Assembly (NCBI GenBank): GCA_964639595.1
Contig: CAZXEC010000001.1
Coordinates: 187,750-251,749 of the forward strand
Length of the DNA: 64,000 bases
Origin: an uncultured Gammaproteobacteria bacterium
Lineage (GTDB): Bacteria > Patescibacteriota > Microgenomatia > CAZXEC01
Direction of reading: 5' to 3'
Shown here: one piece after another, positions 3,979-46,028 of the stretch
Layout of the letters: each line of letters begins with the position of its first letter
Numbering within the stretch: the first letter of the stretch is position 1
Made by a program: the position numbers and the translations under genes
Notes under the pieces: model-generated
Databases searched by the model: none
What the model was told of the DNA's origin: nothing
What the model saw: the letters and a program-made list of their open reading frames with translations, nothing else

Positions 3979-4385
3979 TGCCGGAAGACTTTTCAGAGTA
4001 TAAGAAGTTATTAACAGAAATTATCCAAAAACAAATCATTATCTTGGGTCCGGACGTGGCATTGGTCAAAGCTCGCAGTGTGGCCGGGCTTCAGGTTGGC
4101 AATGACGGTTCTGTCACTGGAATTTCTGGAGATCCTAAGGCAGCCCTGCAGGCGTTAATTGACGAGTACGTATCCTTGTCTGGCTTAATAGTCAAGAAAA
4201 CCATGGAGCCGTTGTTACAAAAATATCCCGGGCTAGGATCAGTCATGGTAGCAGCAGCTGGTACAACTGCAATGTCAACGCCAGAAGCGCCGGCTATTGC
4301 CGGGCAAGTACCAGCACAACCGCCAATCCAGCCAATGCCAACACCACCAAATGCCTCTGGTGCGGAAGGAGGAGACAAACAGTAA
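3978..4385 (+). CDS. hypothetical protein with Pro-rich C-terminus (signalling-operon member)
   Basis: GTG start overlapping the upstream stop; 135 aa; no recognisable domain. Confidence 0.4.
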   Translation: MPEDFSEYKKLLTEIIQKQIIILGPDVALVKARSVAGLQVGNDGSVTGISGDPKAALQALIDEYVSLSGLIVKKTMEPLLQKYPGLGSVMVAAAGTTAMSTPEAPAIAGQVPAQPPIQPMPTPPNASGAEGGDKQ

Positions 4386-4696
4386 TGGAATTAATTGTAC
4401 AAAAAATTATCGAAGTTGCGGCATTTTTGTCCGCCTTTGCCGGAATTGTGGCAGCACTGGTCATGTTTCAAGTAACCAAAAAATTCGGCACTGGGTTGGT
4501 TGCTTCCGGCTATAGGTATATTGCCTTTGGGGTACTTTTTATTGGTGTGGCTATGGTAATTGATGCAATCAGTTTAGTATTAGGTTTGCAGGGGGACTAT
4601 ATATCTTTATTTAAGGCCATACTTTTGGCAATTGGCACTTATATTATTGTTATTGGCACCAAAAACACTGCTGATCGCTTAGAAAAATTGCGTTAG
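4385..4696 (+). CDS. small integral membrane protein
   Basis: 103 aa with 2-3 hydrophobic helices; start overlaps the upstream stop (TAATG). Confidence 0.45.
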   Translation: MELIVQKIIEVAAFLSAFAGIVAALVMFQVTKKFGTGLVASGYRYIAFGVLFIGVAMVIDAISLVLGLQGDYISLFKAILLAIGTYIIVIGTKNTADRLEKLR

Positions 4697-4711
4697 TTAG
4701 TTGATATTAAC

Positions 4712-7375: not shown

Positions 7376-10300
7376 ATGGCTACAAAAAATAAACCACACA
7401 GTAAAAAAGATAAAACTAAGTATCAATCCCGATTTAATCCCCGATTCAATCGGGGTAATCAAGATCAACAAGTAGCCTCTGCCAAAAAGACTGCTAGAAA
7501 AAAGAAGTACACCCAAGAGGAAGTCTGGGCACTTGGCAAAAATATTCCGCCGGTCCCGGCAGATTTGTCTGAACCTCAACTTTCTGAAACTGCATTCTAC
7601 ATAGCCAAAACACGATATGCTCTGCGTAATGATAAGAGTGAGCCGATAGAGTCGGCGCGTGAGATGTTTTGGCGGGTGGCATATAACATCGCTTGCGCAG
7701 ATCTTCTGTATCATGGCGACAGGAATAAAATGATTGAACAGGCCCAAAAGTTTTATAATTTAATGGCTTCTCAAAAATTTATTCCCAATACTCCCACCAT
7801 GCTCAACGCCGGCAAACCGATGCAGCAATTATCAGCTTGTTTCGTTTTGCCGATTGAAGATGATATGAAGTCAATCGCCAAAACCCTGGTTGATATGGTG
7901 ATGATTCACAAGTCTGGTGGCGGCACCGGCTTTTCTTTCTCCAGACTAAGGCCTTATGGTGATGTGATTAAGTCTTCCGGCGGCACCACCGTGGGTCCGA
8001 CTTCTTTTTTACAAGCTTACAATGATGTGACTTCCCAAATTAAACAAGGCGGAGTCAGGCGCGGTGCCAATATGGGCATTATGCACATCACCCATCCGGA
8101 TATTTTGAGATTTGCGGTGATGAAAGTTGATGAGTTTAATTTGACTAATTTTAATATTTCAGTAACTGTCACCGAAGAGTGGATGGATCAGGTTGGCAAG
8201 GATCAGCGGTTTGTTAATAGTGAGCCTGATTGGGAAGAAGTTATTGGAGAAATTAAATCTGCCCAGACTATTCGTGATGTTGATTTAAAACTTAAAAAGA
8301 CTGAAGACGGCGTCAGGAAATTATACGATTTGGTCAAAGCTACTCAACCGGATGAGGGTTACGATTTAATAAATCCCAGAAGCCAGCAGACAGTCGGCAA
8401 ACTGAATGCCTATAAAGTTTTCTTACTTATTACCCAACTGGCTTGGCATTATGGTGATCCGGGAATGATTATGATTGATAGGATCAATAAATCAGGTGCT
8501 AATCCCACTCCACATCTGGGACAGATTGAGGCTACTAACCCTTGTGTTACAGGTGACACTATAATTTCTACAGGAGAAGGGCTTATTCCCATGAAAGAAG
8601 TGGTGGAAAGCCATTTTGCCGGAGGAAAAAGATTCGGTGGTAATATGTCTTTGATCATTGATACCAGGACGCTTAATCATAAAACTGGCGGAACTTTACC
8701 AGGACGTGCTGTTAAGTTCTTTGATAATGGGATTAAGGAAGTTTGGAGACTGACTACTAAATCCGGTTTTACTTTGACAGCTACGCCAGATCATCAATTG
8801 CTCACACCAAAAGGTTGGGTGAAACTTCGAGATCTCAATACAGGAGACATAGTTTTGATCCAAAGCGGTAGAGGAGAATTCGGCAAAAACCGCCAGCTAC
8901 CGATTATCTCGAAGATTCCAACCATGCCTAATGACTGGAGCAAGGAATTGGGCATGGTTCTGGGATGGTTGATAGGAGATGGATGGGTAAGAACTGGAGA
9001 TAAAAACTGTCGAGTTGGTTTCACATTTGGTAAGGATGACCTAGATAGCCTCAATTATATACAGAATCTGATGAATAATTGGTATGGCAAAGACGTGAAG
9101 GCAGTAAAGAGAGAAAGAAATAATACCCATTTATCTTATCATAGTAGGGGGCTAGTAGATTTCTTTGTAAAACTAGGAGTAAAACCAGTTAAAGCTGCCG
9201 ACAAATTAGTTCCAGAGTCAATTTATACTGCGCCTGTTGAGGCAGTGGTAGGATTTTTACAAGGACTTTTTACTGCTGATGGTACGGTTAATTTCAAAAA
9301 AGGTCGTAATGCTTATGTAAGATTGACTTCTAAATCAAAATTATTACTGCAAGGCGTACAACTCTTGCTGCTTAATTTAGGCATATACTCCAAAATCTAT
9401 GACAGGAGTCGGGATTCAAGAATGGGGATGTTTCCTTACAAAAATAAGAGCGGTCAGCTGAAGACTTATACTCTGGATGGTGTTCTATTCGAGTTGTCGA
9501 TTTCAAAACAATCAGTAATGAAGTTTCTATCTGAAGTAGGTTTCCTTTCGGATCGCCACCAAGATAAGATTTCTAAATTTTCCACCCAAGATTTCTACGC
9601 TGATAAATTTGTAGATACTGTTTCCGAAATTAAACCATTTGGGAGGCAGCGAGTTTACGATTTAACCGAAGAGAAAAGTTTGACTTTTATTACTAACGGA
9701 ATAGTTAGCCTTGATTGTGGCGAGCAGCCGCTTCTGCCTTATGATGCCTGCACCTTGGGTTCAATTAACCTAGGGAAATTCGTCAAAGATGGTCAGATTG
9801 ATTACCAGGCCCTGGGTGAGGTTTCCCAAGAATGTGTGCACTTTTTAGATAACGTGCTTGATATGAATGCTTATCCTATTGCCGAAATTGCCGAAATGAC
9901 AAGAAAGGTAAGAAGAATTGGCTTGGGTGTAATGGGTTTGGCAGATCTTTTAGTCCAGGTGGAAATAGGATATAACACTGATGATGGTTTATCGTTGGCA
10001 GAAGATGTCATGGCCCATATTCAAGAATCTGCCAAAGAGGGCAGTATTAAATTGGCGCAAGTTCGCGGGGTATTCCCTGCCTGGAAAGGTTCAATTTTTG
10101 ATGATAAAAGTCCGCATTTCTTGGGGAAAAAGTTAATGATACGAAATGCGGCGGTTACTACTATTGCCCCAACTGGGACTATTGCCATGTTGGCTGATGC
10201 TTCGTCTGGAATTGAACCATATTTTGCCTTGTCTTATGCTAAAAATACTATTGAGGGCAAAAGACTATTTAATATCAACCCTTTCTTTTTGGAAATTGCC

Positions 10301-11299
10301 AAGAGGGAAGGTTTTTACTCGGAAGAATTATTGGAGAAAGTAGAACAAAACAGCGGATCAGTTGCTGGTTTGGCAGAAGTGCCGGAAAGATGGCAAAAAG
10401 TTTTTGTGGTTACCCGTGATATTACTCCGGAGTGGCATGTTAAAATGCAGGCCGCTTTCCAAAAACACGTTGACAATGCCATTTCCAAAACCATCAATTT
10501 TTCCAACAGCGCTACAGTGGAAGACGTCAGACACGCATACATGATGGTATATGAAACCGGTTGTAAGGGGATTACTATTTATCGCGATGGCTCGAGACAA
10601 AAACAGATCCTTGAGGTTAAAAAAGAAGGCTCCTATTATGACCAGTTGGCTGGTAAGCCAACTGGCGATGGAGTATCAAAAAACGGCCATGATAAAACCA
10701 TTGCTGTGGGGGACGATATGACCCCATACTTGCCCACTGCCAAGCCGCTTAAGGCTAAGGCTCCCGGAGAAGCTTGGGGAGTGAGATTGAAAAAGAAAAG
10801 CGATGTTGGCAATGTCTACACAGCAGTATACAGGGATGCTGACGGTAAACCGGTGGAGGTGTTTATTAATGTGGGTAAGTCCGGAGGATATGTGGCAGGG
10901 GCAGCAGAAGTGACCGGTAGGCTAGCTTCTCTGGCTTTAAAGCATGGAGCGGCCCTGGAAGAGGTAGCGGCGGAACTGGTGGGGATTGCCTGTGGAATTC
11001 CTTATGGTGTTGGCCCCAATGCTATTCTGTCAATGTTTGATGCTGCCGGTAAATCTGTTCTGGAGGCAGCTAAAACTAAACAGTTGCCATTGGCCATTGA
11101 TAATGGCGAATTTGAAGTTAGTCAACACGATGGTCATACCAAAGATAATCAACAAGAATCATTACTGCAAGCTCCAGAACAAGTCGGCATAGCGTACAAA
11201 ACTTTATTTGCTTCGTGCCCTGATTGCGGTTCTCAATTAGTGCTGGCTGAAGGTTGTCAAAAATGCTTAAATCCGGGATGCGGTTATAGTAAGTGCTAA
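7376..11299 (+). CDS. nrdJ: class II (adenosylcobalamin-dependent) ribonucleotide reductase NrdJ, containing a 391-aa intein and a C-terminal CxxC...CxxC tail
   Basis: The catalytic NP|CGEQPL motif is split by an intein. The C-terminus ends CPDCGSQLVLAEGCQKCLNPGCGYSKC. The N-terminal extension contains a palindromic-repeat insertion. Confidence 0.85.
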   Translation: MATKNKPHSKKDKTKYQSRFNPRFNRGNQDQQVASAKKTARKKKYTQEEVWALGKNIPPVPADLSEPQLSETAFYIAKTRYALRNDKSEPIESAREMFWRVAYNIACADLLYHGDRNKMIEQAQKFYNLMASQKFIPNTPTMLNAGKPMQQLSACFVLPIEDDMKSIAKTLVDMVMIHKSGGGTGFSFSRLRPYGDVIKSSGGTTVGPTSFLQAYNDVTSQIKQGGVRRGANMGIMHITHPDILRFAVMKVDEFNLTNFNISVTVTEEWMDQVGKDQRFVNSEPDWEEVIGEIKSAQTIRDVDLKLKKTEDGVRKLYDLVKATQPDEGYDLINPRSQQTVGKLNAYKVFLLITQLAWHYGDPGMIMIDRINKSGANPTPHLGQIEATNPCVTGDTIISTGEGLIPMKEVVESHFAGGKRFGGNMSLIIDTRTLNHKTGGTLPGRAVKFFDNGIKEVWRLTTKSGFTLTATPDHQLLTPKGWVKLRDLNTGDIVLIQSGRGEFGKNRQLPIISKIPTMPNDWSKELGMVLGWLIGDGWVRTGDKNCRVGFTFGKDDLDSLNYIQNLMNNWYGKDVKAVKRERNNTHLSYHSRGLVDFFVKLGVKPVKAADKLVPESIYTAPVEAVVGFLQGLFTADGTVNFKKGRNAYVRLTSKSKLLLQGVQLLLLNLGIYSKIYDRSRDSRMGMFPYKNKSGQLKTYTLDGVLFELSISKQSVMKFLSEVGFLSDRHQDKISKFSTQDFYADKFVDTVSEIKPFGRQRVYDLTEEKSLTFITNGIVSLDCGEQPLLPYDACTLGSINLGKFVKDGQIDYQALGEVSQECVHFLDNVLDMNAYPIAEIAEMTRKVRRIGLGVMGLADLLVQVEIGYNTDDGLSLAEDVMAHIQESAKEGSIKLAQVRGVFPAWKGSIFDDKSPHFLGKKLMIRNAAVTTIAPTGTIAMLADASSGIEPYFALSYAKNTIEGKRLFNINPFFLEIAKREGFYSEELLEKVEQNSGSVAGLAEVPERWQKVFVVTRDITPEWHVKMQAAFQKHVDNAISKTINFSNSATVEDVRHAYMMVYETGCKGITIYRDGSRQKQILEVKKEGSYYDQLAGKPTGDGVSKNGHDKTIAVGDDMTPYLPTAKPLKAKAPGEAWGVRLKKKSDVGNVYTAVYRDADGKPVEVFINVGKSGGYVAGAAEVTGRLASLALKHGAALEEVAAELVGIACGIPYGVGPNAILSMFDAAGKSVLEAAKTKQLPLAIDNGEFEVSQHDGHTKDNQQESLLQAPEQVGIAYKTLFASCPDCGSQLVLAEGCQKCLNPGCGYSKC
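7425..7460. repeat. palindromic element copy inside the nrdJ 5' coding region (TCCCGATTTAATC-CCCGATTCAATCGGGG-TAATC)
   Basis: Perfect palindrome CCCCGATTCAATCGGGG at 7437-7453 flanked by partial half-sites; translated as SRFNPRFNRGNQ. Confidence 0.7.
8543..9715 (+). mobile_element. intein with LAGLIDADG homing-endonuclease domain, inserted between P and C of the NrdJ NPCGE active-site motif
   Basis: Block A CVTGDTII, block B TATPDHQLLT, LAGLIDADG motifs LGWLIGDGWV and VVGFLQGLFTADGTV, block F/G VYDLTEEKSLTFITNGIVSLD followed by +1 Cys. The terminal residues are Leu-Asp rather than the canonical His-Asn. Confidence 0.8.
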
Positions 11300-22148: not shown

Positions 22149-23510
22149 ATGAAAAATGATAAATATCTGCGTGAATTCAAAGTAAATTTGACATCGCTGT
22201 CTGCTGCTGACAAAAAGCTGATGGTTAAACTGGTAGAGGTTGTCAGGTTAGTTGCTCCCTTGTATGCCCAGCAGGTCAATAGCAAGTATCCTGGCGCCAA
22301 TTTTTATCCGCATGATGCCTCCCGTGAAGAGATAGAAAAAGCAGCGCACAACAACCCGGATATTTTGAGCCCCTATACTGTGGTAGAGCGTCAAAATGGC
22401 CAGCTGGTAGCTATTCCCTATCATGTTAAATACCAAAAAGCTCTCCTGCCAATTTCCCGGGCTTTGCATGAAGCAGCAGCTCTGTCCGATGGTCAGATGA
22501 GCCGCTATTTAAAAGCCACAGCCGAGGCCCTGCTGGCTGGTGATTATGACGAGATAGATAAATATTGGTTATCTCTCAAAAACTATAATATCGATATTCT
22601 GATTGGGCCGTTTGAGAGATATGTGGATAAACTATTTTTTATTAAGCGCGCCTACCAGGGGTATCTGGGACTTGTTAATAGACAATTAACTAAATTGGCA
22701 CAAGATATCCGTGATGTTTTATATAACACTATTGAAAATAATCCTGATATCAAACACCGGATAATTCCTCTGGAAAGGACACAAGTTAGCGCAATAGACA
22801 ACATTGCCTTTTCGGGATTTTTGGCAGAATCATTGTTTTCCCAGGAACATTTTCCTTGTAATGAGGCCAATATGGAAAAATATGGAGCCAGGATCATCAT
22901 CTATGCCAGCTCCTTAAAGTACAAATTTGATAATTTATTGTATCCTATTTTCCAATCGGTTTTTGAAAAACGCTTCCAGTCAGGCTACTCGCGGGAGTTG
23001 TTGGAAAAAGCCAATTCCCTGTATGTATTAGTCAGAGGTATTGCCCAACAAATGCATCGGTATCAAGGTGCCAGAGAACGCTTGAAAGAATTATTCCCGA
23101 TCATTGATGAAGCCAACAGCCCGGTATCCGGTATACAACATTGCAAGCATTTAATTATGAAAGGGGTTATTTCTCAAAAAGAGCTGGAAGCAATTATTAT
23201 CACCCATATCTGTTGGATGTTTTCCGAATGGGTATTGATTAAAAAGACTCAAACCCGCTCTGATTACCTGCACGGGGATGCTTTGGTGTTAGGATTCTAC
23301 TTAACAGAAGGGGCCTTAAGGCTACAAGATGGCATTTCTTGGCCAAATTTTTCTAAAATATTTTTTGAAATAGAAAGATTATCTTTGATATTTGTTAGAT
23401 TAATAACCATAGGTGATTATCAGGAAGCCAAGGACTTTTTTGATAAGTATTTAAAGTTATCTGTTTTTGATCAGCTGGCAGTCAGATTAACAAAAATTAA
23501 ACCGATTTAA
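22149..23510 (+). CDS. conserved hypothetical protein, paralog A (HExxH-less member of a putative metallopeptidase-like family)
   Basis: Shares the ANFYPHDA...PY.VV...G.L...PYH motif block with the downstream paralog; the position equivalent to HExxH reads AQQMH. Confidence 0.45.
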   Translation: MKNDKYLREFKVNLTSLSAADKKLMVKLVEVVRLVAPLYAQQVNSKYPGANFYPHDASREEIEKAAHNNPDILSPYTVVERQNGQLVAIPYHVKYQKALLPISRALHEAAALSDGQMSRYLKATAEALLAGDYDEIDKYWLSLKNYNIDILIGPFERYVDKLFFIKRAYQGYLGLVNRQLTKLAQDIRDVLYNTIENNPDIKHRIIPLERTQVSAIDNIAFSGFLAESLFSQEHFPCNEANMEKYGARIIIYASSLKYKFDNLLYPIFQSVFEKRFQSGYSRELLEKANSLYVLVRGIAQQMHRYQGARERLKELFPIIDEANSPVSGIQHCKHLIMKGVISQKELEAIIITHICWMFSEWVLIKKTQTRSDYLHGDALVLGFYLTEGALRLQDGISWPNFSKIFFEIERLSLIFVRLITIGDYQEAKDFFDKYLKLSVFDQLAVRLTKIKPI

Positions 23511-24985: not shown

Positions 24986-26458
24986 ATGGAACCACTAGAA
25001 GGGCTAAGGCAAGTCCGCCTGCAAAAATTAGCCGATTTAAAAAAAGCCGGTATCAGTCCTTATCCGGCCAAATTCGATAAACGACATACTATTGCCCAGG
25101 CACTGGCATCGCTTGATAAAAAGGTGACCACTGCCGGTCGGATTATGTCGCTGCGGCCGCATGGCAAAATTACTTTTGCCGATTTGCGCGATGCCTCCGG
25201 CCAAATTCAACTATTTTTCTCTCAAGAAAACCTGACGGCTGATAGCCATCAACTGTTAACTCTCTTGGACATTGGTGATTTTTTGGGAGTATCCGGTAAA
25301 GTTTTCAAAACTAAAGCCGGTGAGATCACTATTGAGATTGACAATTTCAGCGTGCTGGCCAAGTCTTTAAGGCCCCTGCCTTCTTCTTGGTATGGCTTGA
25401 AAGATATTGAAGAGAAGTACCGGCGCCGTTATTTGGATTTGATTATTAATGATGATGCTAAAAAAACTTTTCTTTTACGCACTAAAATAGTTTCTGCAAT
25501 TCGCCGTTTTTTGGATGGTCAAGATTTTATTGAAGTAGAAACTCCCACCTTGCAATCAATTTATGGTGGTGCTAATGCCCGGCCATTTACCACCCACCAC
25601 CAGACCTTGGAGGCTGATTTTTATCTTAAAATCTCCGATGAGTTGTATCTGAAGCGTTTGATTGTGGGCGGGTGGGAAAAAGTTTATGAGATTGATCATA
25701 ATTTCCGCAATGAAGGGGTGGATCGAACTCATAATCCGGAATTTACCATGATGGAATGTTATCAAGCTTATGCTGATTACCGTGACATGATGGAGTTAAC
25801 GGAATCGCTTTATGAAACAGTTGCCAAAGATGTTCTGGGATCAACTAAAATTGACTATCAAAACCAGACAATTGACTTGAAAAAACCCTGGAAGAGACAA
25901 ACCATGGCCGAGGCAATTGGTGAGTATTTGGGGTATGACGTTAATAAAATGTCCGATGATGATTTGAAAAAGGCCATTGCAAAAGAAAAAGTGGCTTATG
26001 AAGGCGAGCCGACTTTAACCGGCGTGGCAGCCGGCTTTGTCCGCGGGATTGCCATTGCCACCCTGTTTGAGGCGGCGGAGAAAAAATTAGTTCAGCCCAC
26101 CTTTATTATTGATTTCCCCAAAGAGACAGCAGTGCTGGCCAAGCCCCACCGTGATAATCCCAGCTTGATTGAACGGTTTGAAGTCTATATTAATGGGTGG
26201 GAGATGGGTAATGCTTATTCAGAGCTGAATGATCCAATTTTGCAAAAAGCAGGTTTTGAAGAACAGGTCAAAGCCAAAAAATCCGGAGATGAAGAGGCTC
26301 ATCCGATGGATTTGGATTATGTGGAGGCTTTGGAATATGGTATGCCCCCCACCGGCGGTTTGGGTATTGGTATTGACCGGACGGTGATGTTATTGAGCAA
26401 TGCTCAAAATATCCGCGATGTGATATTATTCCCCACGCTAAAGCCGGAGAAGAAGTAA
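24986..26458 (+). CDS. lysS: lysyl-tRNA synthetase (class II)
   Basis: OB anticodon-binding domain followed by the class II core (FRNEG..., GGLGIGIDR). Confidence 0.95.
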   Translation: MEPLEGLRQVRLQKLADLKKAGISPYPAKFDKRHTIAQALASLDKKVTTAGRIMSLRPHGKITFADLRDASGQIQLFFSQENLTADSHQLLTLLDIGDFLGVSGKVFKTKAGEITIEIDNFSVLAKSLRPLPSSWYGLKDIEEKYRRRYLDLIINDDAKKTFLLRTKIVSAIRRFLDGQDFIEVETPTLQSIYGGANARPFTTHHQTLEADFYLKISDELYLKRLIVGGWEKVYEIDHNFRNEGVDRTHNPEFTMMECYQAYADYRDMMELTESLYETVAKDVLGSTKIDYQNQTIDLKKPWKRQTMAEAIGEYLGYDVNKMSDDDLKKAIAKEKVAYEGEPTLTGVAAGFVRGIAIATLFEAAEKKLVQPTFIIDFPKETAVLAKPHRDNPSLIERFEVYINGWEMGNAYSELNDPILQKAGFEEQVKAKKSGDEEAHPMDLDYVEALEYGMPPTGGLGIGIDRTVMLLSNAQNIRDVILFPTLKPEKK

Positions 26459-27871: not shown

Positions 27872-29128
27872 ATGTTGGATATTAATTTTATTCGCGAAAA
27901 TATAGATCAAGTCAAAGCCGGATTGAAGAAAAAAGACCAGGATATTTTTTTAGTAGATCAGTTGCTGAAGATTGATCAAAATAGGCGTGAGCTGATCAAA
28001 ACTATTGAAGATCTTAAAGCCCAAAGAAATAAAGCTGCGCAATCAAAAAATATAAGTCTTGGTAAAAAAATTAAAGACGATTTACGGCAAAAAGAACCTG
28101 ATTTGGAAAAAGCAGAAGTTGAATTTAAAAATATCCTGCTTCAACTGCCCAACTTACCTTTGAAAAATGTTCCCGCAGGCGGAGAAGATAAAAATCAGGT
28201 TTTAAGACAAGGGGGACAACCATCCGAATTTAGTTTTACCCCGAAAGACCATGTGGAATTAGGAGAGATATTGGATATTATCGATATTGAGAGGGCCGCC
28301 AAAGTTTCCGGAACCAGATTTGCTTATTTGAAAGGTAGGGGGGTTTTGCTGGAGTTGGCGCTGGTGCAATATGCTTATGAAGTTTTAGAAAAAGCAGATT
28401 TTACTCCGATTATCCCACCGGTTTTGATAAGACAAGAAATTACTCGAGCTCTAGGTTATTGGCAAGCGGGCGGTAATGAGAATTACTATCTGGTTTCCGA
28501 TTACCAGCAAGAAGAAGAACTATCCAATCCCTTATATCTGGTGGGAACCGGAGAGCACGCGGTGGTGCCAATGCATAAGGATGAGATGTTAGATGTAAGC
28601 CAGTTACCCAAAAAATATGCCGCTTTCTCTCCCTGTTTTAGGCGTGAGGCAGGCTCTTATGGCAAAGATACCCGCGGCATCTTAAGAGTACACCAGTTTG
28701 ACAAAGTGGAGATGGTAGAATTTGTCAAAGTTGAAGATGACGAAAAAGAACGCAGAAAAATGCTCTCTATCGCGGAAAAATTAGTCCAAGGTTTACAGCT
28801 GCCGTATCAAGTGGTGCTGTTGGCAGCAGGTGATCTAGGTTTTCCCTCTGCAGAAACTATTGATATTGAAACTTGGATTCCGTCACAAAATAAATACCGG
28901 GAAACCCATTCGATATCTACCACTACTGATTTTCAAGCCAGACGATTAAATATTAAATATAAAAGTGATGGAAAATTAACGCATGTTCATATCCTAAACG
29001 GCACGGCCTTGGCGATTGGTAGGACTATCATTGCTATTTTGGAAAATTATCAGCAGGCAGACGGTTCGGTTAAAATCCCCAAAGTGCTGCAGCGATACAC
29101 CGGATTTTCCGAGATTAAACCTCAATGA
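27872..29128 (+). CDS. serS: seryl-tRNA synthetase
   Basis: N-terminal coiled-coil arm and class II motifs (FRREAGSYGKDTRGILRVHQF); 418 aa. Confidence 0.95.
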   Translation: MLDINFIRENIDQVKAGLKKKDQDIFLVDQLLKIDQNRRELIKTIEDLKAQRNKAAQSKNISLGKKIKDDLRQKEPDLEKAEVEFKNILLQLPNLPLKNVPAGGEDKNQVLRQGGQPSEFSFTPKDHVELGEILDIIDIERAAKVSGTRFAYLKGRGVLLELALVQYAYEVLEKADFTPIIPPVLIRQEITRALGYWQAGGNENYYLVSDYQQEEELSNPLYLVGTGEHAVVPMHKDEMLDVSQLPKKYAAFSPCFRREAGSYGKDTRGILRVHQFDKVEMVEFVKVEDDEKERRKMLSIAEKLVQGLQLPYQVVLLAAGDLGFPSAETIDIETWIPSQNKYRETHSISTTTDFQARRLNIKYKSDGKLTHVHILNGTALAIGRTIIAILENYQQADGSVKIPKVLQRYTGFSEIKPQ

Positions 29129-30375
29129 ATAAGAAAAATGTTTTTCTGTGGTCGCTTTACGATTTTGCCAATTCCATTGTTTCGGTAGTCTTTGCTCTTT
29201 ATTTTTCTCAATGGTTAGTGATAGACAATAAACTGCCAGATATCTGGTACAATCTCATCTTTGTAGGTACAACTGTTCTTTTACTTCTCACAGCTCCAAT
29301 AGCTGGATCTATTGCTGATAAAATTGGTCTGAAAATGCCATTTTTGACTGCCCTAACTTTAGGACAGTTTATTGCCTTGCTATTAATTGGACTCTTAACT
29401 AATTTCATTTCTATTAATTTGGGAATCTTGATACTGATTATTATTCTTTATATGTTTGCAAATTATTTTTATCAATTTCAATTTGTGTTTTATGATGCAC
29501 TTTTGTATGACATTGCGCCACTGAAAGTTCGAGGTTTTGTATCAGGCCTTGGTCAAACAGCTAATTTATTAGGGCAAATTGCCGGACTTTTAATAACATT
29601 ACCATTAATAAGCGGTGCAGTCTTTTTGATTGGTAATCCAGGACGCGCACAAACTTTTTTACCGGCAACCTTAATATTTTTCCTGTTAGCATTACCAATG
29701 TTGTTATTTTTTAAAGAACTCACAAAACCTAAGAAAATATCAATAAACTTGCTTTTTGAGTATAGAAATTCAATAAAAAATTTTCTTGCTTTATGCAGGG
29801 TTCCTGGAGTGGGAAGATATTTATTAGGTTTCTTTTTCTTTAGTGATGCCATACTTACAGCTGGTATTAATTTACCTATTTATTTGGAACAGGTATTTCA
29901 TATATCTGATCGAATCAAGGCAGTTTTGGTGGTAAGTTTCTTTTTGACTGCTGCTATTGGAGCAGCAGTTTCCGGTAAAATTGCTGATAAAATTGGGTTA
30001 AAGCGTTCACTTTTAATAATTCTTGTCTGCTGGGTATTTGCTTTTCCTGCCTTGTCAATTTTGACTAATTTTTTGCATTTTGCAGTTTTAATTCAATTTT
30101 TTGGTTTTTTATATGGGGGAACAATTATGGCAACCAGAGCAGTAATGTCTTATCTTGCTCCACCTGACAAACTTACTCAAACCTTTGGTTACTTTACCCT
30201 TTTTGAGCGTTTTTCCAGTTTCATAGGACCAGTTACATGGGGATTAATTACTTTGCTTTTGGTAAATACTGGAAGTTTGAGATATCAAATAGCGCTGGCT
30301 TCAATGACTCTTTTTGTCCTGATAGGATTTATTCTTGTAAGAAGTACCCTGTCAGATAATAAAGGTATTCAATAA
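29125..30375 (+). CDS. MFS transporter (copy 1 of tandem MFS + spermidine-synthase-like cassette)
   Basis: 12 TM helices; about 55-60% protein identity to 30858..32105; AT-rich codon usage. Confidence 0.7.
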
Positions 30376-30382
30376 AAATTTT

Positions 30383-30841
30383 ATGTTCCTGTTTGCCAAA
30401 ACTATCTATGAGGTGATGTCGCCATTCTCCGGCCGAATCCGGGTTATTGAACAAGGACATGAAAGAAGAGTCATAATCGGCGGATATGTCCAATCCAGGT
30501 GGAATTTTGCCAAAGGAGCCAAAGCCCTGCATGGCACTGTCTGGGACGGATTTTTACGCTTTCCGTTTGCTATAAAACCTGTCCCCAGAACCCTAATTTT
30601 GGGTTTGGGCGGCGGGACTGCTGTTTGCTTACTCCAAGATAAATTCGGCTCCACCTTACCGATTGTTGGAGTTGATATTGATCCGGAAATGATCACCATT
30701 GCCCACAGATTGACCACACTCAAAAATAGTGACAGAATTTTGGTTTTTGATAAGGGCAAAATAGTTCAAGAAGGGACATTTGACGAATTATCCGGCAAAA
30801 AAGGCTTATTTCAGGATTTTTTAAGACAAAGGACTCAGTAG
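30383..30841 (+). pseudogene. chimeric remnant: N-terminal 110 aa of a spermidine-synthase-like (PABS) protein fused in frame to the C-terminal ~40 aa of an ABC-transporter ATPase
   Basis: The first ~330 nt are ~97% identical to 32110..32440. After ...[11 protein letters not shown] the sequence switches to [40 protein letters not shown], a canonical ABC exporter C-terminal tail. Confidence 0.65.
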
Positions 30842-30857
30842 GCATTAAATTAGTTGT

Positions 30858-32105
30858 ATGAATAGAAAAAATATTTTTCTTTGGAGTCTTTATGATTTTG
30901 CAAATTCCATTGCAGTTATAGTTTTCTTTTTATATTTTTCTCAATGGTTAGTTATAGACAATAAAGTGCCAGATATCTGGTATAACCTGATTTTCGTAGG
31001 ATCAACAATTCTTTTACTTTTAACAGCACCTGTTGTAGGCTCAATAGCTGATAAAATTGGTGTCAGACTACCCTTTTTGAACGTTGCAACGGTTCTGATG
31101 TTTGTTTTTCTTTTAGGATCAAGTCTGTTTGCGACTTTTGCACCTGGTACAACGTTCTTTGTAGCTCTGGCAGCGATACTTTTCCTTTTTTCAAACTATT
31201 TTTACCAATTTTGTTTTACATTTTATAATGCCTTTTTACATGATCTTGCCCCTGCAAAACTGACAGGTTTTGTTTCAGGTTTAGGTCAATCTTCTAATTG
31301 GTTGGGTCAAATTACCGGTCTTTTAATTACCTTACCTTTGGCAACTGGCGCTATTTATTTAGCTGGGCATGCTGGAAGAGCCCAAACTTTTTTACCAGCC
31401 ATACTGGCCTTCTTCTTACTTGCCCTACCTATGATGTTATTTTTTAAAGAGAAACGTAAACCCGAAAAGGTTTCTATAGATCTTGGGGGAGAATATAAAA
31501 ATTCTTTACGTGATTTTATTTCTCTATGTAAACTTCCCGGAATGGGTAGATACCTTTTAGGTTATTTTTTCTTTAATGATGCACTTTTAACAGCTAGTAA
31601 CAACTTCCCTATTTTTATGGAGCAAGTATTTAAGGTCAGTGACAGTGTTAAATCCACACTTTTGCTTGGGATTTTAGCAACTTCTGCAATTGGTGCATTA
31701 ATAACTGGATGGATTTCGGATAAGGTAGGTCTTAAAAAGTCTCTGATAATTATTTTAGCTACCTGGTTAGTAATACTACCAGCCCTAAGTGTAATTACTA
31801 ATTTTACGTACTTTGTTATAGTAGCAGTAATTATGGGATTTTTCTATGGAGCAACCTGGACAGTTACAAGAGCAGTAATGAGCTACCTTACACCAAAGAA
31901 TAGACTTAATAATGCTTTTAGTTATTACACAATGGCAGAACGCTTCTCTACTTTTTTGGGCCCAGTGGTATGGGGATTAGTTACATTGCTTTTGGTAAAC
32001 GCTGGAGCTTTTCGTTATAGAATAGCAGCTCTTTCGATGACTATATTTATTTTAATTGGGTTGATAATTATAAGAAAGATTCCGTCACATACAAAAAATA
32101 TATAA
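30858..32105 (+). CDS. MFS transporter (copy 2)
   Basis: 12-TM paralog of 29125..30375. Confidence 0.7.
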   Translation: MNRKNIFLWSLYDFANSIAVIVFFLYFSQWLVIDNKVPDIWYNLIFVGSTILLLLTAPVVGSIADKIGVRLPFLNVATVLMFVFLLGSSLFATFAPGTTFFVALAAILFLFSNYFYQFCFTFYNAFLHDLAPAKLTGFVSGLGQSSNWLGQITGLLITLPLATGAIYLAGHAGRAQTFLPAILAFFLLALPMMLFFKEKRKPEKVSIDLGGEYKNSLRDFISLCKLPGMGRYLLGYFFFNDALLTASNNFPIFMEQVFKVSDSVKSTLLLGILATSAIGALITGWISDKVGLKKSLIIILATWLVILPALSVITNFTYFVIVAVIMGFFYGATWTVTRAVMSYLTPKNRLNNAFSYYTMAERFSTFLGPVVWGLVTLLLVNAGAFRYRIAALSMTIFILIGLIIIRKIPSHTKNI

Positions 32106-32109
32106 AGCT

Positions 32110-32775
32110 ATGTTTCTGTTTGCTAAAACTATCTATGAGGTGATGTCGCCATTCTCCGGCCGAATCCGGGTTATTGAACAAGGACATGAAAGAAGAGTCA
32201 TAATCGGCGGATATGTCCAGTCTAAATGGAATTTTGCCAAAGGAGCCAAAGCCCTGCATGGCACGGTCTGGGACGGATTTTTACGCTTTCCGTTTGCCAT
32301 AAAACCTGTCCCCAGAACCCTAATTTTGGGTTTGGGCGGCGGGACTGCGGCTGGCCTGCTCCAAGATAAATTTGGCTCCACCTTACCGATTATTGGAGTT
32401 GATATAGATCCGGAAATGCTCACCATTGCCCGGAATTTTTTTGGAATAAAAAATATCGAAATGATTTGCCAGGATGCTATCCTTTATGTTAAGGAGGCAA
32501 GACAACTTGGCAACGAATTTGATTTTATCATTGTTGATTTGGACAAAGGAGACTCATACCCTAAACAAGCAGAAACAGAAGAATTTATTGCCAATTGCAA
32601 AGGTTTACTCAATCCGGGCGGTGTAGTTGTTTTTAATAGAATTTATACCAGAAACAAACAAGAGCTAGTTGCCCCGTTTTTAAAAATATTAAAAAGTGTT
32701 TTTGCCAGGATTGGGTCAGTGATTATTCCCGGGCTAACCGGTTCTGATAATATTTTAATTTTTGCCCAGGTCTAG
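32110..32775 (+). CDS. spermidine-synthase-like (PABS-fold) aminopropyl/methyl-transferase; with the upstream MFS gene it forms a split version of the 'fused MFS/spermidine synthase' architecture
   Basis: [10 protein letters not shown] glycine loop, VDIDPEM (D-x-D) motif and VDLDKGD acidic motif; 4-nt gap to the MFS gene. Confidence 0.6.
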   Translation: MFLFAKTIYEVMSPFSGRIRVIEQGHERRVIIGGYVQSKWNFAKGAKALHGTVWDGFLRFPFAIKPVPRTLILGLGGGTAAGLLQDKFGSTLPIIGVDIDPEMLTIARNFFGIKNIEMICQDAILYVKEARQLGNEFDFIIVDLDKGDSYPKQAETEEFIANCKGLLNPGGVVVFNRIYTRNKQELVAPFLKILKSVFARIGSVIIPGLTGSDNILIFAQV

Positions 32776-32859: not shown

Positions 32860-33801
32860 TTACTGGCCGATGGCGCTGGGTGTGGCGCTTTGTGTGCCAG
32901 TTTCCCCCTCCAGAGGTTCCACATTAAAACCGCTTTGGGTTCGGCGCGGCGTTGGAGTAGGGGTTGATATCGGTCCGGTGATAGGTGCGGGTGTTGTTAT
33001 TTGTTTTCCAGTTGTTGGCGATGATTGAGATCCACCAAATAATTGTGAGCCAAAAGCCAGTCCTGCTCCAATCAAGCCACCAACCAGCACGATAATTATT
33101 ATTAATAAAGGTAATTTGATGGGCAGTTTCCTGCCGTCTTCCGGTTCCATTGGCGGACTTGCTGGTTGCATGGAAACCGGTATTTCTCCTGGTGGGATAG
33201 GACCAGGTGTTGCTTGGACAAATTGGTCTTGGGTGGTTGCCATGACTGGCAAAGGAGGTGCTTGAGGCGGTGAAGCTTCAGAAGACATTGGGGCAAAAGG
33301 AATGTAGCTATCTGCAGAAGTAGTCCCTTCCGGTAAAAATGTCTCGCCTTGATTTGGCTGAGTCGGAACAGGCTCGTTTTGTTCAAAACTTGGCGAAACA
33401 AGTCCTTTTTGTACCTGTTCCAGGTCAGCAGCAGGAGATGGTGGTGCTGGCTGTATTGAATCAGTGGGCGGCATAGGAGCTGAAAATGCAGGAGGTTGTA
33501 TACCTGGAGTATTACCGATGTTGTCTGCCAGTTGTTCCAGGTCTTTAGTGATAGTTTGTTCTTCTGCTGGCGTTACAGGAGCAGTCGGGGGGTTTGTTGC
33601 TGGAGCAGTTGGATTGGCCGGGTTAATCAAATCATCAGCCACAGGTTTGATAACCGATGATAAATCAGGAGGGATGGTTGGCTCTGCATTTATATCAGGT
33701 TGTGAGATAGGCGGATTATTCGGCGGCGTGGATGAGGAAACAGGGTTGCTTGGTGCACCTTGACCTGTTGGGTTGTTATCATCCATATGTAGATTTAGCA
33801 T
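32860..33801 (-). CDS. proline/threonine-rich single-pass membrane protein (hypothetical)
   Basis: Low-complexity Pro-rich N-terminal region, one TM (LPLLIIIIVLVGGLIGAGLAF), short Thr/Pro tail. Confidence 0.45.
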   Translation of the reverse strand: MLNLHMDDNNPTGQGAPSNPVSSSTPPNNPPISQPDINAEPTIPPDLSSVIKPVADDLINPANPTAPATNPPTAPVTPAEEQTITKDLEQLADNIGNTPGIQPPAFSAPMPPTDSIQPAPPSPAADLEQVQKGLVSPSFEQNEPVPTQPNQGETFLPEGTTSADSYIPFAPMSSEASPPQAPPLPVMATTQDQFVQATPGPIPPGEIPVSMQPASPPMEPEDGRKLPIKLPLLIIIIVLVGGLIGAGLAFGSQLFGGSQSSPTTGKQITTPAPITGPISTPTPTPRRTQSGFNVEPLEGETGTQSATPSAIGQ

Positions 33802-33819: not shown

Positions 33820-36594
33820 TTGTCAACCACGCTGTTTCTAGGTAGTATTCCTGGCTCGTTTTATGAAGCTAATTTTGATACAATGGATGTGATTATGCTA
33901 GGAATTTTATCAAAGTTTTTAAATACCAATCAAAGGGAGCTAGATAACATTTGGCCAATTGTTGCCAAGATTGGCCAGCAGGAGGAGTCCATCTCGCAGT
34001 TATCAGACAGACAGCTTTCTGACAAAACCACTGACTTCAAAAAGAAATTACAGGATGGCCAAAGCCTAGAGAGTATTTTGCCAGAAGCTTTTGCTTGCGT
34101 CAGAGAAGCTTCCAAGCGCACCACCGGCATGAGACATTATGACGTGCAGCTTCTGGCAGGTGCGGCACTTTTTCGGGGAAAAATTGCTGAACAAAAAACC
34201 GGCGAAGGTAAAACTTTATCAGCCACCACCGCTCTATATCTGCGGGCACTTGTCGGCCAGGGCGCTCACCTGGTTACTGTCAATGATTATCTGGCCAAAC
34301 GCGACGCCGAGTGGATGGGTCCAATTTTCCATGCGTTGGGAATGTCTGTGGGGGTGATTAATCACGAACAGTCTTATTTATATGACCCCAATCCTCAAAC
34401 TAAGGAAGTAGAGACTGCGGAAGTTCACTTGTCTGAAGAAGAAGCTCTATCCCCGGAAACTGGCGGTTTGGGGACAGGCAAATATTTAAGGGAAGTCACA
34501 AGAAAAGAAGCATATCAGGCAGATATTACCTATGGAACCAATAATGAATTTGGCTTTGATTACCTGCGGGATAATATGGTCAGAGCACTTTCTGATATGG
34601 CCCAACGCGGACACTACTTTGCCATTGTGGACGAGGTAGACTCGGTTTTAATTGACGAAGCCAGAACGCCTTTGATTATTTCTGCTCCCGATACAGAACC
34701 AACAGATAAATATTATGAATTTTCCAAAATTGTCAGCCGACTCAACCCTCAAGCTGATTATGTGGTTGATGAAAAGTTGAAGTCAGTCCATTTAACCGAT
34801 GGGGGCATTGTCAAAATTGAACAATGGCTGCAAGTTGATAACCTATATGAGAAAGATTTTGACACTCTCCACCATATTGAGCAAGCCTTAAAAGCCAGGA
34901 CCCTTTTCCAAAAAGATAGAGATTATATTGTCCGTGACGGGGCAGTTGTCATAGTGGATGAATTTACCGGCAGGCTGATGTTTGGCCGGAGATTTTCTGA
35001 AGGGTTGCATCAGGCCATAGAAGCCAGAGAAGGTGTCAAAATACAACAGGAGTCAAAAACATTGGCTACTATTTCTTTCCAAAATTATTTCCGGATGTAT
35101 CAATATTTAGGAGGTATGACTGGAACTGCTGCCACTGCTGCAGAAGAATTCCATAAAATTTATAAATTAGATGTGCTTGTAGTGCCGACTAACAAAACCA
35201 TGATCAGACAAGATCTGTCAGATGCTATTTATAAAACTGCCAAAATTAAGTTTCAAGCAGTAGCTGCTGAAATTGAAAAAAGGCACCAAGCCGGCCAGCC
35301 GGTGTTAATTGGCACCACTTCCATTGATAAAAATGAGCTGGTATCCCAGCTTTTGACCAGAAAAAGGATCAAACACCAAATCCTCAATGCTAAAAACCAC
35401 CAGAAAGAAGCCCAAATTATCTCTCAAGCCGGACAAAAAGGAGCAGTAACCGTGGCCACCAATATTGCCGGGCGAGGAGTCGACATTAAATTGGGAGATG
35501 GCGTAGTTTCTCTAGGGGGCCTACATATTATTGGCACAGAAAGACATGAGGCCAGAAGAATTGATGACCAACTAAGAGGCAGGGCCGGACGACAAGGTGA
35601 CCCCGGTTCTTCACAATTTTTTGTGTCCTTGGAAGATGACATTATGAGGCTATTCGGAGGATCACAAGTGGCGGGACTGATGACCGCTTTGAAAATTCCT
35701 GATGATATGCCTATTTCCCATGGCATGATTTCTCGGGCCATTGAGAGCGCCCAAAATCGCGTGGAAGGCCACAATTTTGATATTAGAAAACATGTAGTTG
35801 AGTATGATGATGTGATCAACAAACAAAGGCAAATAGTTTACGGCCAAAGAAAAAAGATCATCGAGCAAAGTGAAACTCAAGAAGACTATCTGCGCCAGAT
35901 AGTTTTGGGAAAATTAAGACAAGAGATATCTGGCATGGCAATTTTATACGGACAAGAGGGTTACACTCCGGCAGAAGTTGCCGAGTTAATCAGAGAATTT
36001 TGTGAAATTATCCCTTTTGATCAGGCTTCACGTGACCAAATTACCAGCCAGATTGGCACCGGTAAATCAAGCGAGGAAGTATCGCAGTTATTATGGTCTG
36101 TTGTAGAGCATGTTTACAACCAACGTCTTGATGAGTTGGGCAATCAAGTGATGATAGAGGTGGAAAAGTTTGTACTTTTGGAAGTGGTTGACCGTTTGTG
36201 GATTGAGCACCTGGATGCTGTAGATGATTTGCGGGAGGGGATTGGCTTAAGAGGTTATGCGCAAAGAGACCCCTTGGTGGAATACAAAGCCGAAGCTTTT
36301 GGTATGTTTGAGAAACTGATGAAAAATATCGACTATGAAGTAGCCAGAAGAATTTTTAAAGTGCAGGTAGCTGGGAGACAAACTACTCACAACTCACCGC
36401 TTACAGCAAACAGCAGATTACAGCCTATTGAAAATAGCAGTGCTCAGATAGCAGATCAGCAAGCAGTCAGCCCCGATCAATCCCGATCAAATCGGGATCA
36501 AATCGGGGTCAGCCATAAGCAAAAATTAGGCCGTAATGATCTGTGCTGGTGCGGTAGCGGGAAAAAGTATAAAAGATGTCACTATCCTAATTAG
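33820..36594 (+). CDS. secA: preprotein translocase ATPase SecA, with C-terminal zinc-binding CWCGSGKKYKRCH
   Basis: DEAD motor motifs, preprotein cross-linking domain, C-terminal zinc finger. A palindromic-repeat insertion encodes SPDQSRSNRDQIGVS in the C-terminal linker. Confidence 0.95.
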   Translation: MSTTLFLGSIPGSFYEANFDTMDVIMLGILSKFLNTNQRELDNIWPIVAKIGQQEESISQLSDRQLSDKTTDFKKKLQDGQSLESILPEAFACVREASKRTTGMRHYDVQLLAGAALFRGKIAEQKTGEGKTLSATTALYLRALVGQGAHLVTVNDYLAKRDAEWMGPIFHALGMSVGVINHEQSYLYDPNPQTKEVETAEVHLSEEEALSPETGGLGTGKYLREVTRKEAYQADITYGTNNEFGFDYLRDNMVRALSDMAQRGHYFAIVDEVDSVLIDEARTPLIISAPDTEPTDKYYEFSKIVSRLNPQADYVVDEKLKSVHLTDGGIVKIEQWLQVDNLYEKDFDTLHHIEQALKARTLFQKDRDYIVRDGAVVIVDEFTGRLMFGRRFSEGLHQAIEAREGVKIQQESKTLATISFQNYFRMYQYLGGMTGTAATAAEEFHKIYKLDVLVVPTNKTMIRQDLSDAIYKTAKIKFQAVAAEIEKRHQAGQPVLIGTTSIDKNELVSQLLTRKRIKHQILNAKNHQKEAQIISQAGQKGAVTVATNIAGRGVDIKLGDGVVSLGGLHIIGTERHEARRIDDQLRGRAGRQGDPGSSQFFVSLEDDIMRLFGGSQVAGLMTALKIPDDMPISHGMISRAIESAQNRVEGHNFDIRKHVVEYDDVINKQRQIVYGQRKKIIEQSETQEDYLRQIVLGKLRQEISGMAILYGQEGYTPAEVAELIREFCEIIPFDQASRDQITSQIGTGKSSEEVSQLLWSVVEHVYNQRLDELGNQVMIEVEKFVLLEVVDRLWIEHLDAVDDLREGIGLRGYAQRDPLVEYKAEAFGMFEKLMKNIDYEVARRIFKVQVAGRQTTHNSPLTANSRLQPIENSSAQIADQQAVSPDQSRSNRDQIGVSHKQKLGRNDLCWCGSGKKYKRCHYPN
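36471..36510. repeat. palindromic element copy (nested variant) inside the secA 3' coding region
   Basis: CCCCGATCAA-TCCCGATCAAATCGGGA-TCAAATCGGGG, with nested dyad symmetry. Confidence 0.65.
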
Positions 36595-45320: not shown

Positions 45321-46028
45321 GTGAATCTCAAACAGAAAAATAATATGCTGAAGTTTGATAAAGTCACAAAACATTTTGGTACCGGTTATGAGGCATTAAC
45401 TGATGTTGATTTAGAGATCGAACCATCAGAGTTTGTTTTTATAATTGGGCCTTCGGGAGCTGGTAAAACTACCTTATTAAAACTGATCACCAAGGAGCTG
45501 ACTCCCAGCAGCGGATCAATTTATTTTGGCGATTGGGATCTGGTTAATTTGCCTTCCTCATACATACCCCAACTAAGACGTAGAGTGGCTACGGTTTTCC
45601 AAGATTTCCGTCTCTTGACAGACCGGACGGTTAGAGAAAATGTGGCTTTGACACTTGAGGTGTTAGGTCAAAAAGTGGAAGATATACAGGAGGATGTCAA
45701 TCAAATACTGGAGATGGTGGGACTGGCTGGTAAGGGTGAAACTTTCCCCAGTCAATTGTCAGGAGGAGAAGCTCAAAAAGTGGTCATTGCCAGAGCGCTG
45801 GTTGCTAAACCGGAAGTGATTTTAGCAGATGAACCGACAGGTAATCTTGATCTTGGCACAGCCAGGTCGATTATGAAGTTGCTAGAAGATATCAATAAAG
45901 CAGGTACCACGATCATGATGGCTACTCATAATGCCGATCTTGTTAATGAAATGGAAAAGCGGGTGATACGCCTAGATAAAGGTAGAGTAACTTCAGATCG
46001 CAAAAAAGGAAAATACAAAGATGATTGA
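45321..46028 (+). CDS. ftsE: cell-division ABC ATPase FtsE
   Basis: Walker A GPSGAGKTT, signature LSGGEAQ, Walker B ILADEPTGNLD; overlaps ftsX. Confidence 0.9.
   Translation: MNLKQKNNMLKFDKVTKHFGTGYEALTDVDLEIEPSEFVFIIGPSGAGKTTLLKLITKELTPSSGSIYFGDWDLVNLPSSYIPQLRRRVATVFQDFRLLTDRTVRENVALTLEVLGQKVEDIQEDVNQILEMVGLAGKGETFPSQLSGGEAQKVVIARALVAKPEVILADEPTGNLDLGTARSIMKLLEDINKAGTTIMMATHNADLVNEMEKRVIRLDKGRVTSDRKKGKYKDD

Follow-up and report, generated by a model that had tools for sequence, protein, structure and literature searches.

An in-frame joint between a PABS-like gene and the tail of an ABC exporter gene at the SerRS-SecA locus of a Daviesbacteria-like genome

Between the genes for seryl-tRNA synthetase (SerRS) and SecA in the window, which is the whole stretch of 64,000 nt of DNA that was analyzed, we identified a chimeric ORF that combines the 5' part of a PABS-like gene with, in the same reading frame, the 3' end of an ABC exporter gene. 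The ORF is very likely the joint left by a recent, microhomology-guided illegitimate recombination of these 2 genes. One partner would have been an intact PABS-like gene behind the transporter gene MFS1, and the other an intact exporter gene of the YwjA/MsbA type, which in relatives is situated between SerRS and an MFS-PABS pair. The switch would have occurred within positions 30689-30704, with loss of the 3' half of the PABS-like gene and of the body of the exporter gene. This class of event is well known as the scar of microhomology-mediated illegitimate recombination, and the case described here is a new example of it, not a new kind.

The features of the region are listed below. The closest relative found, L002 (Logan SRR22387912), has flanks that are 84-89% identical to those of the window at the nucleotide level.

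27872..29128, + strand: SerRS, left synteny anchor; Pfam Seryl_tRNA_N/tRNA-synt_2b; 91% amino acid identity to L002 over the full length
29125..30375, + strand: MFS1, an MFS transporter (UMF1/ATG22-like); Pfam MFS_1, 1.5e-35
30383..30841, + strand: chimeric ORF, 152 aa; equals GenBank MBI4039231.1, "hypothetical protein"
30383..30704, + strand: PABS-like 5' fragment, codons 1-107 of the chimera; 305 of 322 nt identical to 32110-32431
30689..30704, no strand: crossover interval, microhomology ATGATCACCATTGCCC, M-I-T-I-A in both parents
30705..30841, + strand: ABC exporter remnant, from the H-loop histidine to the stop; 44 codons of ABC-only origin
30858..32105, + strand: MFS2, orthologous to the MFS gene located behind ABC in L002 (87% amino acid identity)
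32110..32775, + strand: PABS2, an intact gene, spermidine-synthase-like with a class I methyltransferase fold, 221 aa; Pfam Spermine_synth
32110..32431, + strand: second copy of a 322-nt repeat, inside which the NCBI contig ended, at 32348
32860..33801, - strand: ORF X, proline-rich, right anchor; position and strand kept in relatives
33820..36594, + strand: SecA, right anchor; the order X(-)-SecA is found in L002, L003, L011, L093, and L176

The chimeric ORF and its joint

The first-pass annotation had described a 152-aa chimera in which a PABS 5' half runs in frame into an ABC 3' tail. The ORF at 30383..30841 reads exactly as quoted there, and both the DNA alignment and the matches to ABC proteins agree with the fusion. 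When aligned as DNA, the chimera and PABS2 are nearly identical from the ATG up to ATGATCACCATTGCCC, with 17 differences in 322 nt (about 95% identity over 107 codons), and are unrelated beyond it. The chimera is homologous to PABS2 as far as 30704 and to the ABC gene of L002 from 30689 onward, so that the 2 sides (95% and 92% identical to PABS2 and to the L002 tail, respectively) overlap over 30689-30704, the pattern of a microhomology joint. This stretch, which could come from either parent, comprises codons M103-I-T-I-A107 and the first base of codon 108, which is CAC (His) in the chimera and CGG (Arg) in PABS2.

That both parents shared a sequence at the junction, as had been proposed, holds in part. 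The 12-mer ATCACCATTGCC is present at 30692-30703, and a short sharable stretch exists, but the present-day stand-ins for the parents differ slightly and share it imperfectly: PABS2 has ATGCTCACCATTGCCC at the crossover, which matches the chimera at 15 of 16 positions, while in L002 the counterparts in the PABS-like gene (ATGATCAATATTGCCC) and the ABC gene (ATGATAACAATTGCCC) agree with each other at 13 of 16.

The chimera lacks the first ~540 codons of the ABC gene as well as the 3' half of the PABS-like gene. Judged from the ORF content of 29125-32775, which is wholly covered by 4 ORFs that lie 4-16 nt apart, the joint is not accompanied by a transposase, an integrase, or terminal repeats, and the ORF list contains no mobile-element ORF or other gene between SerRS and SecA. 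A scan for promoters and terminators near the joint returned nothing above chance.

The tail derives from an ABC exporter

Residues 103-148 of the chimera align with the last ~45 residues of the NBD of Ste6, ABCB1, and MsbA (E 3.7e-16, PDB), and the tail matches the carboxyl-terminal ends of MsbA/HlyB-type NCBIfam models. In a search space of 5.8 billion protein clusters, the best 57 protein matches to the tail carry PF00005 (ABC_tran) and match the chimera in the tail only, with E-values down to 1.5e-18. These 3 lines of evidence bear out the earlier identification of the tail as an ABC terminus. Each of its residues is the family consensus or a common variant, and the tail is identical or near-identical to those of CPR orthologues.

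Compared with ABCB half-transporters (MsbA, Sav1866, and B. subtilis YwjA-like proteins), the last 49 residues (...FLRQRTQ) form a typical H-loop (..IAHRL..) and carboxyl-terminal segment. Unlike these proteins, however, the chimera has neither the six TM helices nor Walker A, the Q-loop, the LSGGQ signature, or Walker B. The alignments begin at the H-loop, and no match to PF00005 was obtained. Likewise, PF00664 (ABC_membrane) is absent from the chimera in Pfam and NCBIfam searches, whereas it is present in the 590-aa orthologue of L002. By its domain content, the chimera is a remnant of an ABC exporter and not a member of the family.

A tblastn search of the window with the ABC protein of L002 recovered residues 537-587, which align with 30689-30841 (90% amino acid identity, E 2e-23; 92% nucleotide identity) and no other part of the protein. 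This test reaches close relatives only, as the distant FtsE ATPase encoded at 45321-46028 (27% identity) escaped it.

The PABS-like part is truncated

Residues 73-100 of the chimera keep motif I (LGLGGGT) and the acidic GVDID, both of which are invariant in an alignment of 18 family members. The fragment thus comprises the N-terminal domain, the GLGGGT motif, and VDID, and stops before the DA, D..D, and FNR motifs. The family invariants D122-A123, D138, D143, G147, P151, and F175-N176 all lie past residue 107, where they are replaced by ABC sequence, and the complete seven-stranded fold is missing. In Pfam, the chimera has no Spermine_synth match and scores 16-20 bits against methyltransferase families with cut-offs of 21-30; it reaches no Pfam threshold at all. 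PABS-like proteins that naturally end in such a tail, which the first-pass annotation had named as an alternative to a fusion, were not seen: PABS2, P0001, and 16 distant homologues all end otherwise.

PABS2, on the other hand, scores 38 bits against Spermine_synth (cut-off 22.9) and holds the usual position of the PABS-like family, between SerRS and SecA. It resembles the fused MFS/spermidine synthases (PF01564; NCBIfam NF037959) in its fold signature and in its location directly behind an MFS gene, which gives the same domain order in the form of 2 separate genes. It differs in that it stays below the NCBIfam cut-offs for polyamine aminopropyltransferase and for fused MFS/spermidine synthase, while most CPR PABS-like loci have no MFS neighbor, and the chimera retains only the first 107 residues.

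In a set of 80 metagenome loci (L096-L175), the PABS-like gene appears as a deep syntenic neighbor of SerRS and SecA in CPR. SerRS is located upstream on the same strand in 49 of the 80 (within 200 nt in 30), and SecA downstream in 44. In none of the 80 does an MFS gene adjoin it, and a close orthologue of the ABC exporter of L002 is likewise absent.

Gene order in relatives points to a lost exporter gene

In L002, the order is HD-SerRS-ABC-MFS-PABS-X(-)-SecA, in which the ABC gene (L002 1765-3537) encodes 590 aa with both ABC_membrane and ABC_tran domains. Homology between L002 and the window runs through SerRS to 29116, is interrupted, and restarts at 30689 in the H-loop codons of the ABC gene. 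From there, it continues through MFS2, PABS2, X, and SecA, and the MFS2 stretch is collinear with L002 3382-6003. In the window, 1,580 nt consisting of MFS1 and the PABS 5' fragment occupy the place that the initial ~1,625 nt of the ABC gene have in L002. The tail had earlier been attributed to a vanished ABC-transporter ATPase. The intact gene upstream of MFS-PABS in L002 supports the loss of such a gene, which is, however, a fused permease-ATPase half-transporter rather than an ATPase alone. The ABC genes also differ at their 3' ends by a 1-nt indel, with ...QRVSS* in L002 (3520-3537) and ...QRTQ* in the window (30824-30841); the L002 end looks derived, as most orthologues end like the window.

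The adjacency of SerRS and ABC recurs in L093 (SerRS-ABC-X-SecA) and in L094/L095, and ABC-X-SecA is found in L003. Every ABC-bearing relative with a visible upstream flank has the ABC gene directly after SerRS. A second locus type, SerRS-MFS-small membrane ORF-X-SecA, is represented by L006, L011/L012, and L176, so that in relatives SerRS directly precedes either the ABC exporter gene or an MFS gene. The order SerRS-MFS1-type-PABS was not found among the relatives, as those with SerRS-MFS have the small membrane ORF next; remnants of this ORF (s89) were not detected in the window by a search that reaches close relatives only.

Further searches did not add a parental arrangement. A metagenome search with 2 close PABS sequences gave no match, and a wider one gave only distant homologues (27-39%) and no parental haplotype. 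Among the matches listed, a genome-contig search anchored on SerRS gave only distant bacteria, with at most 52% identity. ORF X, which has no Pfam match, varies in length from 245 to 397 aa among relatives.

The exporter itself is widely conserved: its best 120 matches, some of which are named YwjA, come from many CPR phyla, and identity over ~590 aa is 69% or more in all of them. Daviesbacteria, Roizmanbacteria, Nomurabacteria, Kaiserbacteria, and Uhrbacteria are among the groups represented. None of these 120 is located on the 458-kb contig that carries the genes of the window.

MFS genes have been exchanged at the locus

The stop codon of SerRS overlaps the start codon of MFS1 (ATGA). MFS1 and MFS2 share 60% amino acid identity, and their DNA is mostly ~55-70% identical in windows of 60 nt. 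At the PABS start codon, the identity between the 2 units rises from ~63% to ~95% (92-100%), a level that holds up to the joint. The designation of the units as copy 1 and copy 2 of a simple duplication is therefore misleading, and the contrast between 60% amino acid identity of the MFS parts and 95% nucleotide identity of the PABS 5' parts rules out a simple tandem duplication of MFS-PABS. On these values, MFS1 did not arise recently from MFS2 and is best described as an allele that is either foreign or old.

MFS1 is 83% identical to the MFS protein of L006 (82% at the nucleotide level), while the SerRS proteins of the window and L006 share only 48%. An independent case is provided by L176 and L002, whose MFS proteins are 93% identical (91.6% at the nucleotide level) and whose SerRS proteins are 66% identical. 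Since the MFS and SerRS identities are discordant in both pairs, the MFS gene has, by this comparison, demonstrably been exchanged between lineages at SerRS..SecA in a cassette-like manner. The shared homology extends from the MFS start codon to 20-30 nt before the stop (~20 nt for L176/L002), with the cassettes at 29125-30375 in the window, 1913-3157 in L006, 1454-2698 in L176, and 3563-4807 in L002. No breakpoint was found inside SerRS, where identity to L002 is 80-97% and that to L006 ~40-69% until about a dozen bases before the stop. The locus thereby offers clean examples of gene-sized MFS allele exchange between distantly related Daviesbacteria-like genomes, which bears on variation in streamlined CPR genomes.

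Substitution patterns suggest a young joint

Over the 107 shared codons, the chimera has 8 private changes, PABS2 has 8, and L002 has 19. The chimera and PABS2 differ by 11 synonymous changes in 77 sites (dS about 0.16) and by 6 non-synonymous changes in 244 sites (dN/dS about 0.16), and 3 of the 8 changes on the chimera branch are non-synonymous. In the ABC tail of 47 codons, there are 11 differences between the window and L002. Only 2 of these are non-synonymous, and 4 outgroups (L094, L004, L005, and L003) place both on the L002 side. This leaves no amino acid change on the window branch, on 113 non-synonymous sites.

Under neutral decay since the PABS split (about 0.08 substitutions per site), about 19 non-synonymous changes in the PABS part and about 9 in the tail would be expected, against 3 and 0 observed. 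Because these counts fall far below the neutral prediction, we infer that the joint formed not long ago (about 0.02-0.03 neutral substitutions per site at the most) and that both halves were under purifying selection, in presumably intact genes, until recently. The pattern agrees with the earlier idea that 2 intact genes were fused. The dating draws on small counts and assumes a clock and a chimera without selection of its own, so that it fails if the chimera is selected. Weighing against the proposed recombination as a whole are that neither parental arrangement was found among relatives, and that the jump from ~63% to 95% identity at the PABS start is left unexplained by the joint and needs an extra event, either replacement of the MFS allele or gene conversion.

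Two routes to the joint

A recent recombination of the 2 genes could have come about by 2 routes, which fit the data about equally well. In bacteria, spontaneous deletions and gene fusions form between short direct repeats by RecA-independent illegitimate recombination or replication slippage, and the end-points of lacI-lacZ deletions are the classical example. The joint resembles these in several respects: 13-16 nt of common sequence link unrelated coding sequences, what lay between them has gone, neither a mobile element nor a site-specific recombinase takes part, and an in-frame fusion ORF arises as a by-product. By the first route, an ancestor with the order SerRS-MFS1-PABS1-ABC-MFS2-PABS2 would have lost about 2 kb by an intrachromosomal deletion between direct repeats of 13-16 nt. 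No mechanism is simpler, and repeats of this length are typical. However, such an ancestor requires a duplication, an MFS replacement, and the long keeping of 2 PABS paralogues in a reduced genome, and the unit with the PABS fragment is, unlike in the classical cases, a mosaic that contains a foreign MFS allele. We give this route a chance just short of even. The first-pass annotation had likewise argued for a deletion and had suggested looking for an intact MFS-PABS-ABC order in relatives. The chimera, the lost exporter gene, and the sharable stretch from which it argued all stand, but the required order, with PABS and then ABC on one chromosome, occurs in no relative, and in L002 PABS lies downstream of ABC.

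By the second route, 2 haplotypes, SerRS-MFS1-PABS and SerRS-ABC-MFS2-PABS2, would have been joined after DNA uptake, with one end at homologous sequence and the other at the microhomology. This route is plausible, though on balance we would sooner doubt it than accept it. It takes fewer steps, each lineage would have had one PABS gene only, kept by selection, and the discordances of MFS1/L006 and L176/L002 indicate that the locus exchanges DNA between lineages. The donor haplotype remains hypothetical, however, as it was not found among the loci of relatives. Within the window, MFS1 is discordant with the adjoining SerRS, the right-hand joint lies at a microhomology, and the PABS 5' fragment, at 95% identity to PABS2, is not foreign.

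Competence has been shown for Saccharibacteria, and com genes are reported to be widespread in CPR (PMC10633639), although the process is established in CPR only as this Saccharibacteria competence. The 64-kb window contains no genes for ComEC, DprA, or type IV pili. PMC6382021, citing de Vries and Wackernagel 2002, documents illegitimate joints at short microhomologies beside a homologous anchor in transformable bacteria (Acinetobacter, S. pneumoniae, and P. stutzeri). On the second route, the SerRS..SecA locus would be similar, with a foreign or divergent MFS1 beside a conserved SerRS, one homologous end and one microhomology end, and replaced resident DNA. It differs in the length of the microhomology, which is 3-10 bp in the joints reported there and up to 16 nt here.

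More tentatively, homology-facilitated illegitimate recombination may have left the joint as its natural footprint, in which case SerRS..SecA would be a hotspot where transporter genes (MFS alleles and the ABC exporter) are traded between Daviesbacteria lineages; we put this reading forward as possible but doubtful. If true, it would show directly, from genome sequence, that natural transformation alters the gene repertoire of uncultivated CPR bacteria, the cost here being a near-universally conserved ABC exporter.

An old tandem-duplication joint is a further explanation, though a highly improbable one. In an L002-like ancestor (SerRS-ABC-MFS-PABS), unequal recombination between PABS and the ABC H-loop would have doubled ABC-tail-MFS-PABS-5' and created the joint in one step, after which a foreign MFS1 would have replaced the upstream ABC-MFS. 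This explanation needs only the order observed in L002, with ABC upstream of PABS; such joints show exactly this downstream-to-upstream polarity, and MFS allele replacement is documented at the locus. Yet a useless ORF at dS about 0.16 is expected to carry about 28 non-synonymous changes, of which 3 are present, with none in the tail. Moreover, the intactness of the tail caps the age at about 0.027 per site, which predicts about 4 synonymous changes where 11 are seen, and MFS1 and MFS2, at 60% identity, are not recent duplicates. The even divergence and neutrally decaying ORF that a tandem duplication would leave were not found either (MFS ~55-70% versus PABS 95% at the nucleotide level). An old duplication junction is thus disfavored by the substitution counts.

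The chimera is probably a non-functional by-product

The chimera starts 8 nt after MFS1 and ends 16 nt before MFS2, and is probably co-transcribed with its neighbors. Since the Rossmann fold keeps only motif I and the acidic loop, and the ABC domain only the H-loop and the carboxyl-terminal strands, the encoded protein is probably a non-functional by-product, without essential parts of both parent proteins. From its anatomy, it would be able to act neither as an aminopropyl- or methyltransferase nor as a transporter. Its persistence would be owed to its recent origin, the maintained reading frame, and its place in a densely packed operon, and an in-frame joint may have been favored through the avoidance of polar effects on MFS2-PABS2.

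We also considered whether the fusion is a selected, functional small protein, for instance a regulatory or dominant-negative subunit that acts through the PABS N-terminal domain, or whether it is kept so that translation reaches the start of MFS2. The intact ORF, its scarcity of non-synonymous changes (3 of the 8 on its branch over the PABS part and none over the tail), and its operon position with short spacers are in line with this reading, in either form. However, a recent joint of 2 selected genes predicts an equally low non-synonymous count. Furthermore, the architecture is confined to this population, with one cluster and no diverged fusion homologues among the 5.8 billion clusters, and in the protein the one parent's Walker A/B, signature motif, and membrane domain are missing, as are the other's DA, D..D, and FNR motifs, which are invariant in the PABS-like family. 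We consider selection for the fusion protein very unlikely.

For annotation, a fusion remnant such as MBI4039231.1 should not seed protein families. For the organism, the event means the loss, at a conserved position, of an exporter that is strongly conserved across many CPR phyla; the organism may either do without this exporter or carry another copy of its gene.

The joint is present in separate assemblies and runs

Over 11,966 nt, the window differs at 7 positions from GenBank JACQJB010000001.1, a contig of a Candidatus Daviesbacteria MAG that stops at window position 32348, within the 322-nt repeat. MBI4039231.1 occurs on contigs of 35,850 and 458,424 nt. In addition, the joint lies within 2 Logan contigs: L008 (SRR12113424), which corresponds to window 30592-32169 with 1 mismatch, and L009 (SRR12113384), which is 100% identical to 30635-32154. 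Both carry bases that are specific to copy 1. Only 13 nt separate the last such base (30692) from the first that is exclusive to ABC (30705), a distance bridged by single k-mers and reads.

That the joint is an artefact of assembly or of chimeric reads at a repeat has next to no probability, since, even though the 322-nt repeat did break the NCBI assembly in this region, the 13-16 nt of identity at the switch are too short for a k-mer graph misjoin, and 2 NCBI contigs and contigs from 2 further sequencing runs share the joint.

Because of that same break, PABS2 is split over 2 GenBank contigs, and its halves are deposited as the partial proteins MBI4039233.1 (80 aa) and MBI4039661.1 (181 aa).

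A further contig, L010 (SRR4343435), starts at window 30713 with 100% identity, one base past position 30712, where the window has G and L002 has A. Either low coverage or a co-occurring haplotype whose left side differs (it might have the ABC gene intact) could account for the break. Of the 7 differences between the window and JACQJB010000001.1, 5 fall within 43 nt (23432-23474), near the 3' end of a 453-aa ORF (22149..23510) without a Pfam match; this cluster may mark a recombination tract or a short variable stretch.

Elsewhere in the window, a ribonucleotide reductase large subunit of 1,307 aa (7376-11299) harbors an intein that includes a LAGLIDADG homing-endonuclease domain. In the segment that precedes the HD genes and SerRS, the window encodes a class II lysyl-tRNA synthetase (tRNA-synt_2) at 24986-26458, as does L011, while L094 has a class I lysyl-tRNA synthetase (PF01921) in the same syntenic position (4031-5596).
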